From Chitinophaga niastensis (lineage in GTDB: Bacteria > Bacteroidota > Bacteroidia > Chitinophagales > Chitinophagaceae): 32,000 bases of DNA. The position numbers and the translations under genes were made by a program. This document shows, in pieces, positions 22,057-22,504 of the stretch. The notes below the pieces were generated by a model that made no database searches, was not told the origin of the DNA, and worked only from the letters and a program-made list of their open reading frames with translations. Each line of letters opens with the position of its first letter. Within the stretch, counting starts at the first letter, position 1. The stretch spans positions 306,320 to 338,319 of the forward strand of contig NZ_PYAW01000005.1 of NCBI RefSeq assembly GCF_003014755.1, read 5' to 3'.

Positions 22057-22504
22057 GTCTTTCACAGGATTAGACTGATTATGCTGATTACCCTGATTTT
22101 TTTTTGATTTTTGAAAGATTTTAAAAGATTAACGCGGAGAGTGTCTGAACTGTGATTTATATGATTAGTATGATTATCCTGATTAGGGGAGATCTCAGCG
22201 GATATTGTCTGAACCAGGATTTTTAGGATTTAAAAGATTACCCTGATGGGTGCCGAAGATTTAAGCGGAGATATTTGCGTAAATATTTTCCAAATAAAAC
22301 AACATAACACCCATCAGGGTAATCTTTTAAATCCTAAAAATCCTGGTTCAGACAATATCCGCTGAGATCTCCCCTAATCAGGATAATCATACTAATCATA
22401 TAAATCACAGTTCAGACACTCTCCGCGTTAATCTTTTAAAATCTTTCAAAAATCAAAAAAAAAATCAGGGTAATCATCATAATCAGCCTAATCCTGGGAA
22501 AGAC
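22057..22504 (-). repeat. 448-nt modular near-perfect palindrome (about 196-nt arms, 55-nt asymmetric centre); family copy 3
   Basis: Arm 22057-22252 pairs with 22308-22504. I derived the reverse complement by hand: the inner 147 nt of each arm (22106-22252) are perfectly complementary. The outer part has 3 substitutions and a T9 versus T10 difference. The centre is the inverted homologue of the copy-1 centre. The right end touches the TAG stop of the 22504..23451 gene. Confidence 0.92.

Follow-up and report, generated by a model that had tools for sequence, protein, structure and literature searches.

A 32,000-nucleotide stretch of the Chitinophaga niastensis genome (contig NZ_PYAW01000005.1, positions 306,320 to 338,319; hereafter the window) contains a 448-nt palindrome, designated E3, between the csp gene and a gene for a carbon-nitrogen hydrolase. 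E3 belongs to a family of Chitinophaga foldback repeats, is built of three nested layers, is absent from all of the orthologous loci that we examined, and differs from the related copy at 3715-4017 by changes that are mirrored in both arms. We consider it probable that E3 is a composite member of this family whose perfect stem arose by the recopying of one arm from the other in addition to nesting. Four related intergenic palindromes (E1 to E4) are present in the window, and a blastn search over 409 kb of DNA revealed approximately 50 complete copies from other genomes and one metagenome; E3 is thus not, as a first-pass annotation of this DNA had allowed, unique to its locus.

Anatomy of E3

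The near-perfect palindrome recognized in the first-pass annotation is real, and its perfect part is longer than was then claimed: the arms are complementary at 156 of 156 positions (100%), a tract that includes the 147 nt reported earlier, and are separated by a centre of 55 nt (Table 1). The three substitutions and the change in homopolymer length that had been assigned to the outermost 49 nt or so are also present; the substitutions fall within the outer 40 nt of the arms (22057-22096 versus 22465-22504) and the homopolymer is the adjoining T-run, which is T9 in the left arm and T10 in the right. The boundaries stand as first drawn. The T-run of the csp terminator, itself kept in related Chitinophaga genomes, ends at 22056, and E3 starts with the next base; its final base (22504) is the G of the minus-strand TAG stop codon of the hydrolase gene, an overlap of one base. 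Folded as RNA, the segment 22030-22520 reaches -344.9 kcal/mol compared to -103 +/- 5.6 for shuffled sequences (z = -43).

The centre had been described as not self-complementary, and it possesses no significant structure (DNA fold z = -0.46), yet it is homologous to the apical stem-loop of the other family members and matches the centre of E1 in the inverted orientation. The same region is preserved in E1 (z = -4.6) and strongly structured in the canonical copy E4 (z = -7.8).

Alignment of 36 canonical family copies (A1) and an nhmmer profile built from it were used to dissect the element. The outer layer (A) is recognized as two half-elements, 22054-22140 corresponding to profile positions 5-94 and 22422-22506 to positions 95-182 (both E = 1.3e-15). 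The middle layer (B) gives matches at 22153-22210 (positions 27-100, E = 0.002) and 22354-22407 (positions 91-161, E = 0.009). The innermost layer (C) spans the whole profile, 22206-22359 matching positions 2-181 (E = 9e-7) and, on the opposite strand, 22217-22359 matching positions 45-186 (E = 3.5e-7). By eye, a TGTCT box can be seen at the head of each left half and (A/C)GCGGAnA, where the apical loop of the family begins, at its end. Each arm comprises three tandem half-units. Judged by these matches, E3 consists of an outer copy split exactly at its apex, a middle pair of halves, and a complete innermost copy. With a significant match to the A1 profile and terminal boxes at 22057 (plus strand) and 22504 (minus strand), it has the features by which the family is defined.

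The inner two layers carry a diverged box, TGTCTGAAC, which is confined to E1 and E3 and is missing from the 45 other loci examined; E1 has the same two-layer arrangement as the inner layers of E3. The first-pass annotation regarded the concentration of differences at the outer ends as the reverse of what decay from the loop would produce. It did not see the three-layer nest, which explains why the ends are older.

Table 1. Coordinates of E3, its parts, its relatives and neighbouring features (window positions unless a locus is named)
Feature	Position	Strand	Description
E3, whole composite palindromic element	22057..22504		448 nt, three nested layers
Layer A, left half	22057..22141	+	terminal box GTCTTTCACAGGATTAGACTGATT, GATT every 9-10 nt, half apical stem ending GATTAACGCGGAGAG
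Layer B, left half	22142..22205	+	diverged box TGTCTGAACTGTGATT ... GATTAGGGGAGATCTCAGCGGATAT; TCTGAAC boxes
Layer C, innermost complete element	22206..22354	+	arms 22206-22252 and 22308-22354 around the centre
Layer B, right half	22355..22418	+	perfect mirror of 22142-22205
Layer A, right half	22419..22504	+	mirrors 22057-22141, ends CTAATCCTGGGAAAGAC; last base within hydrolase stop codon
Perfect inverted repeat, left arm	22097..22252	+	inner 45 nt of layer A and all of B and C
Perfect inverted repeat, right arm	22308..22463	+	complement of 22097-22252
Asymmetric 55-nt centre	22253..22307	+	decayed apical stem-loop (CCGAAGATTTAAGCGG...) plus AAATAAAACAACATAA
csp intrinsic terminator	22022..22056	+	stem AAACCGC...GCGGTTT, then T9; left boundary, outside E3; terminator scan
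Carbon-nitrogen hydrolase gene (context)	22504..23451	-	TAG stop 22504-22506
E1	3715..4017		consists of layers B and C alone; arms of 125 nt with 97% complementarity; lies between the genes for proline racemase and DAO
E2	12005..12180		canonical type, after SusD stop; GC hairpin on each side (CCCGCCTTCGGCGGG / CCGGCCGAAGGCCGG)
E4	25799..25985		canonical 187-nt element, starts 1 nt past PIF1-helicase stop
Flanking GC hairpins	11980-12004, 12181-12205; L032 5299-5313/5487-5501, 8840-8854/9026-9040		L032 coordinates approximate
Flanking GC hairpins, approximate	L037 6621-6635/6808-6822; L028 8792-8806/8975-8989		
Terminal box of the family			TTGTCTTnCCCAGGATTAG

Other identities for E3 were considered and set aside. 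It contains no open reading frame (ORF) longer than 39 amino acids and was ruled out as coding sequence. A tRNA/tmRNA search of the window found none, and Rfam 15 at gathering thresholds gave 0 matches; relaxed thresholds produced only sub-threshold matches to miRNA-precursor models, as any long hairpin does, and a known RNA family was ruled out. The E3 hairpin lacks the combination of GC-rich stem and U-tract of an intrinsic terminator on both strands, being followed by TATTCCTG on the plus strand and A9 on the minus strand. The only terminator-like sites detected in the region by a terminator scan are that of csp (22030-22056) and a weak one at the centre of E3.

An independent view of the element is provided by a short-read assembly (Logan SRR6479432), whose contig L001 carries the hydrolase and helicase genes and reproduces the right half of layer A; the right outer arm is identical base for base. 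The contig breaks 71 nt into E3, exactly where the arms become identical, and it confirms the right outer arm, the interior being beyond the reach of that assembly. Both ends of L001 (1-33 and 3324-3398) lie inside family copies, an illustration of how the family breaks short-read assemblies of Chitinophaga.

The repeat family and its arms

The canonical copy is non-coding and approximately 185 nt in length; most copies measure 160-215 nt (range 118-448 nt), E3 being the longest as well as the most elaborate copy encountered and E1 the second longest. In A1 the termini are near-invariant and the interiors variable. The consensus ends are TTGTCTTnCCCAGGATTAGACTGATTTTGATGATT, the terminal boxes TTGTCTTnCCCAGGATTAGACTGATT, and the family termini TTGTCTTnCCCAGG; the box CCCAGGATTAGACTGATT..TGATT hardly varies at either end of the 36 aligned copies. 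Inside the ends lies a variable stretch with GATT every 9-10 nt, followed by an apical stem-loop of consensus AAAAGATTAGsGrAGATAnAAGCGG-loop-. The numbers of GATT units in the left and right arms are modestly correlated (r = 0.41) when E3 is left out, as well as E1, which has no canonical terminal boxes.

The 409 kb contain 114 matches to the terminal box, always as close plus/minus pairs 120-450 nt apart, and no such pair in this DNA encloses an ORF that could represent an autonomous partner. Copies almost always lie no more than 40 nt from a stop codon, with 20 in convergent, 22 in tandem and 3 in divergent contexts; csp is too short for the ORF filter, and E3 was reclassified as convergent in this count. 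Seven copies besides E3 have two or three terminal boxes in place of one, on a single side or on both. A duplicated or triplicated box or half-element on one side is seen at L020 1287-1530 (three tandem 26-nt left boxes versus one right box), L039 5914-6149, L037 2198-2411, L040 4776-4983 and L011 1355-1638.

Scanning a collection of genomes located the terminal box GTCTTTCCCAGGATTAGnCTGATT in those of C. ginsengisegetis and C. hostae, and 33 metagenome loci, 32 of them from a single sample, contain a somewhat shortened pattern. This pattern is absent from viral contigs, and the plasmid and phage collections contain no match; a plasmid, phage or viral origin was rejected on these grounds. As far as its sequence distribution indicates, the family is restricted to Chitinophaga, a genus of soil bacteria, and consists of intergenic repeats resembling foldback elements or miniature inverted-repeat transposable elements (MITEs). 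A literature search for MITEs or repetitive extragenic palindromes (REPs) in Chitinophaga yielded nothing, and this is apparently an undescribed family of a well-known kind.

The gene order around E3 (CCG-domain protein, PIF1 helicase, hydrolase, csp, MFS transporter, RpiA) is conserved, and synteny is kept in C. nivalis, C. ginsengisegetis, sp. 22321, sp. W3I9 and further genomes; the hydrolase gene is missing in locus L051. We surveyed the spacer between the csp and hydrolase stop codons in loci L046-L055 and L007-L012. It is shortest in L052, where its 122 nt are taken up by the csp terminator and a second terminator-like hairpin, and exceeds 1.3 kb at the other extreme. None of the 14 orthologous Chitinophaga loci contains a family member between the two genes, and E3 is therefore a lineage-specific gain. 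The idea that E3 is a conserved feature of a spacer which is itself hypervariable was accordingly discarded. The hydrolase, which is 100% identical to a C. niastensis protein, ends in ..LQE* in this species as compared to ..LQEK* in its closest relatives (..LQEKEQ* in C. nivalis). Here E3 takes the place of both the final sense codon and the stop of the gene, and also of the terminator hairpin that follows it in two relatives with short spacers (L047 and L052).

Among the surveyed spacers, the longest (L048, L049 and L054, each over 1.3 kb) carry extra small ORFs, and in L048 a unit of some 62 nt is repeated in tandem roughly four times at about 3560-3800. Chitinophaga sp. 22321 possesses an unrelated palindrome at the same position between csp terminator and hydrolase stop (L008 4945-5057, and the same sequence at L050, approximately 3262-3375). 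It has 52-nt arms at 98%, composed of GGCATAAAGCA-type repeats of about 11 nt, and a 9-nt loop; it supplies the hydrolase stop codon, the protein end becoming ..LPKA*.

The position of E4, downstream of the helicase gene, is filled in three species and empty in two. One filled site (L011 1355-1648) can be compared with an empty one (L010, around 1640; alignment A3), the flanks being near-identical and both sites lying downstream of the PIF1 helicase gene. In the empty site TAA is followed directly by GGCGCGCAAC, while the filled site reads TAG, GAGG, the element, CCTCCGCACCGCGCCGAA and then GGCGCGCAAC. No direct duplication accompanies the insert, whose last part repeats the flank in inverted orientation and thereby forms a GC hairpin. 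No target-site duplication was seen at the junctions of the window copies or in this filled/empty pair.

The arms of the family covary. In A1, 93.1% of cells are paired compared to 84.3% in shuffles, and 198 cells show changes on both sides compared to 69; neither value was reached in any of 500 shuffles, and controls with a slid register gave 37-51% pairing. When the copies are oriented by the upstream gene (sense), G·T mismatches number 59 and A·C mismatches 56. Since G·T is not in excess, there is no sign of tolerance for RNA wobble, and the symmetry of the arms is a property of the DNA. The covariation thus points to mirroring at the DNA level over selection on RNA, and selection on the arms at the RNA level was rejected for want of this bias.

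Homogenisation of the arms is only partly true of the family as a whole. The mean identity between the two arms of a copy is 0.78, versus 0.70 between copies, and the partner arm is the nearest relative in only 10 of 44 copies. Because typical copies have decayed, near-perfect arms are special to the two TGTCTGAAC-type copies, E1 and E3. Comparison of E1 with the inner part of E3 reveals 18 differences at which, in each of the two elements, one arm mirrors the other, and a single unmirrored arm-to-arm mismatch in the same 111 columns. All three substitutions in E3 lie in the outer 40 of the 196 nt of the arm (P = 0.0085), as does the indel. On both sides the perfect tract overruns the limit of the inner layers (22142 / 22418) and continues for 45 nt in layer A. 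It passes there through the most variable part of the family alignment, in which the outer rate predicts about 3.4 differences (P = 0.034), and it stops at the T-run of unequal length.

Origin of the perfect stem

In the explanation that we propose, an older, canonical copy fills the space that separates the csp terminator from the stop codon of the hydrolase gene, and a two-layer element of the C. niastensis-specific TGTCTGAAC subfamily, to which the copy at 3715-4017 also belongs, would have entered exactly at the apex of its hairpin. Three concentric layers are the result, and because of this nesting the outermost ends are older and more diverged. During replication one arm would have been recopied from the other by intrastrand template switching at the quasipalindrome, in effect a gene conversion of one arm by the other. 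Copying may have begun at the loop and run outward as far as the T9/T10 run, leaving the older differences in the outermost 40 nt; the observed pattern is the one that such an event should produce. Template switching acts on DNA, and hence mirrored changes would be exact complements without wobble intermediates. In E. coli this process renders imperfect inverted repeats "perfect or more perfect" (PMC7202029).

Three possible reasons for the persistence of a perfect stem had been listed in the first-pass annotation, namely recent origin, active homogenisation and selection for the structure. Both recent origin and homogenisation receive support from the 18 mirrored versus one unmirrored change, the 78% pairing of typical copies and the 45-nt overshoot; selection is not favoured, given the G·T and A·C counts and the 14 loci that do without the element. 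Most likely E3 is selfish or neutral DNA whose presence at gene 3′-ends is tolerated, ordinary repeat DNA rather than a regulatory device special to csp or hydrolase. As a by-product it supplies the stop codon of the hydrolase gene; and, since it takes the place of the terminator hairpin, hydrolase transcripts should run into a hairpin of some 196 bp. The instability of long palindromes, about which the annotation had voiced concern, applies in E. coli mainly where there is little or no spacer, and the concern is softened here by the 55-nt unpaired centre.

A number of points weigh against recopying and nesting. No cognate transposase, target-site duplication or movement was observed, and we infer mobility from presence/absence and copy number alone. 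The TGTCTGAAC subfamily was examined in two copies only, the E-values of the middle layer (0.002-0.009) are marginal, and the statistics that set a conversion tract against a young insertion rest on three substitutions. A template switch of 156 nt would exceed the tracts on which experiments have been done. The doubled boxes on one side of L020, L011, L037, L039 and L040 are equally compatible with tandem slippage and with nested insertion, and may be products of the former or uncompleted stages of the latter. Finally, a short-read assembler could have merged a few isolated differences between the arms and so exaggerated their perfection.

The last point can be taken further, to the suggestion that the palindrome, or the perfect match of its arms, is an assembly artefact, both arms having been collapsed into one graph edge with the popping of bubbles. 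The 196-nt arms probably exceed a typical short read (we assume the read length), the Logan assembly breaks exactly where the arms turn identical, and the mismatches that survive in E3 and at 3715-4017 adjoin unique anchors, either flank or loop. Against this, the architecture matches that of about 50 independently assembled relatives, and both outer arms are present with distinct variants, the right one confirmed by L001. A collapse would presumably hide only a few isolated differences, as arms less than about 98% identical should share no long k-mers, and it cannot create the element. We regard an artefact as the most improbable of the explanations considered.

Recent insertion without any recopying, the inner 278 nt or the entire perfect tract being a very young copy of a perfect master, is the strongest competitor and in our opinion still unlikely. 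It agrees with the absence of the element from every orthologous locus examined, with the presence of the same two-layer unit at 3715-4017 (arms 97%), and with an outer layer that is visibly older (three substitutions in 40 nt). It does not predict that the perfect tract overruns the boundary of the inner element by 45 nt on both sides (P about 0.03), and it would still need a process that kept the masters perfectly mirrored through 18 substitutions. A bolder and quite unlikely reading is that the family is a bacterial foldback mobile element which moves through a single-stranded hairpin intermediate. Insertion would favour exposed hairpin apices, those of resident copies included; one arm would be regenerated from the other, each copy being reborn as a perfect palindrome, and neither two-ended recognition of termini nor target duplication would be needed. 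This would explain the concentric nesting, the mirrored substitutions free of wobble and the inverted flank copy at one insertion junction, with the one-sided box duplications as unfinished intermediates. Should nesting indeed reflect targeting of hairpin apices, the family would point to an uncharacterised mobilisation mechanism in the Bacteroidota.

Very little probability is attached to a relationship with REPs and their REPIN hairpins, in which the copies would be substrates of a domesticated HUH (RAYT-like) or an IS200/IS605-like single-strand transposase that recognizes hairpins, and the mirrored arms would reflect the need for a foldable single-stranded intermediate. The filled and empty sites compared show no target-site duplication, the whole element forms a hairpin, some copies are flanked by short GC-rich GGCGCCTTCGGCGCC-type hairpins, and the preference for gene 3′-ends recalls REPs. 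On the other hand, the units are AT-rich and 185-450 nt long, not GC-rich palindromes of 20-40 nt, and have no GTAG or CGTC head such as typifies the REP superfamilies (PMC3733652). No RAYT or TnpA gene was noticed, although no screen aimed at the proteins of the loci was made. Equally doubtful is a functional RNA hairpin that would act, within the hydrolase 3′ untranslated region or csp read-through transcripts, as a terminator, a stabiliser of 3′-ends or an RNase III site, with the arms under selection for RNA pairing. The positions of the copies within 40 nt of stop codons (20 convergent, 22 tandem, 3 divergent) and the strong covariation of the arms speak for such a role, and the hydrolase gene here has no separate terminator hairpin of the sort found in the shortest-spacer relatives L047 and L052. 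This is countered by the sense-strand mismatches (59 G·T, 56 A·C), the lack of a U-tract after the hairpin on either strand and of an Rfam match, the decay of typical copies to about 78% pairing, and the absence of the element from 14 orthologous loci whose spacers, of roughly 120 nt to more than 1.3 kb, have unrelated content.

Neighbouring features and comparison with known repeats

Several family copies, E2 among them, are flanked on both sides by the short GC-rich hairpins of type GGCGCCTTCGGCGCC (Table 1). The two hairpins at E2 differ from one another, with compensation inside each (CCCGCC..GGCGGG versus CCGGCC..GGCCGG). They may be terminators or a second, REP-like class of repeat.

Approximately 14 kb (5284-19574) separate the DAO oxidoreductase gene from RpiA in C. 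niastensis, a block that includes the genes of a SusC/SusD pair and of a GH2 beta-galactosidase, among others. DAO directly adjoins RpiA in sp. 22321, sp. W3I9 and C. ginsengisegetis. E2 is situated within this block, between the SusD and GH2 genes, and E1 outside it, upstream of DAO. A further candidate copy at 14130-14233, inside the GH2 ORF (12220-15324), was rejected: it is a weak two-strand match (E = 1e-5 to 1e-4) in GATT-rich coding sequence and probably a chance similarity.

Members of the family rewrite gene 3′-ends, stop codons and terminators. Their most notable features are the concentric nesting at the apex and the mirroring of arms at the DNA level, and some 50 palindromes of graded age offer a natural data set in which such mirroring can be measured against decay. 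Engineered reporters have otherwise been the main means of studying how template switching perfects palindromes.

In size and coding content E3 (448 nt, no ORF above 39 amino acids) and the canonical copies (160-215 nt) resemble MITEs, as they do in their conserved terminal inverted repeats (36 aligned copies, 114 box matches). Direct target-site duplications are missing from the window junctions and from the L011/L010 pair, where an inverted flank copy is found instead. By definition (PMC3733652), a REP is an imperfect palindrome that measures 20-40 nt and whose conserved head reads GTAG or CGTC; the present units measure at least 160 nt and have the termini TTGTCTTnCCCAGG. The architecture is of the foldback (FB) type, with GATT units at a period of 9-10, three tandem half-units per arm in E3, and copies of 118-448 nt. 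As no target-site duplication or partner insertion sequence (IS) was seen, and the head and size range of REPs are lacking, we do not file the E3 family as bona fide MITEs or as REPs or REPINs.

ERIC/IRU of enterobacteria, Correia elements of Neisseria and RUP of pneumococcus are likewise short, non-coding, multi-copy and intergenic, with conserved inverted termini and the capacity of the whole element to form a hairpin. They also share frequent co-transcription at 3′-ends, longer variants with internal insertions, and variation in presence and absence. The Chitinophaga family differs in having no target-site duplication at the junctions examined and no IS with the same ends in the 409 kb, and in its arms of 9-10-nt GATT units, repeated half-elements and concentric nesting at the apex. 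BOX of S. pneumoniae (boxA-(boxB)n-boxC) and the bacterial interspersed mosaic elements (BIMEs) of E. coli are similar in their modular build, variable internal modules, complementary end modules and location at gene ends. Their modules, however, are distinct sequence classes in tandem or alternating order, whereas the layers here are diverged copies of one foldback unit, the left halves in tandem and the right halves in mirror order. With REPs, REPINs and their REP-associated tyrosine transposases (RAYTs), the family has in common hairpins at 3′-ends, the lack of target-site duplication and pairing preserved by changes in both arms; unlike the GC-rich REPs of 20-40 nt with their GTAG/CGTC head, it is AT-rich, 185-450 nt in length and carries a TTGTCTT...CAGGATTAG box.

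As to process, the quasipalindrome template switch (the Ripley model, and the E. coli reporters of the Lovett laboratory; PMC7202029) produces exact-complement changes in DNA in a single replication event, which fits the mirroring and the lack of a G·T bias. It has been demonstrated on short hairpins of tens of nucleotides; we infer it here for 156 nt per arm, which is unusually long.

FB transposons of Drosophila and other eukaryotes have long inverted arms, built of tandem sub-repeats and varying in length from copy to copy, around a short or absent centre. They are eukaryotic, of kilobase scale and in some copies linked to a specific transposase, and the resemblance of the Chitinophaga family to them is one of architecture and not of homology. 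The closest known kinds are thus the ERIC or Correia-type MITEs, the BOX or BIME mosaics and, in architecture, the eukaryotic foldback elements.

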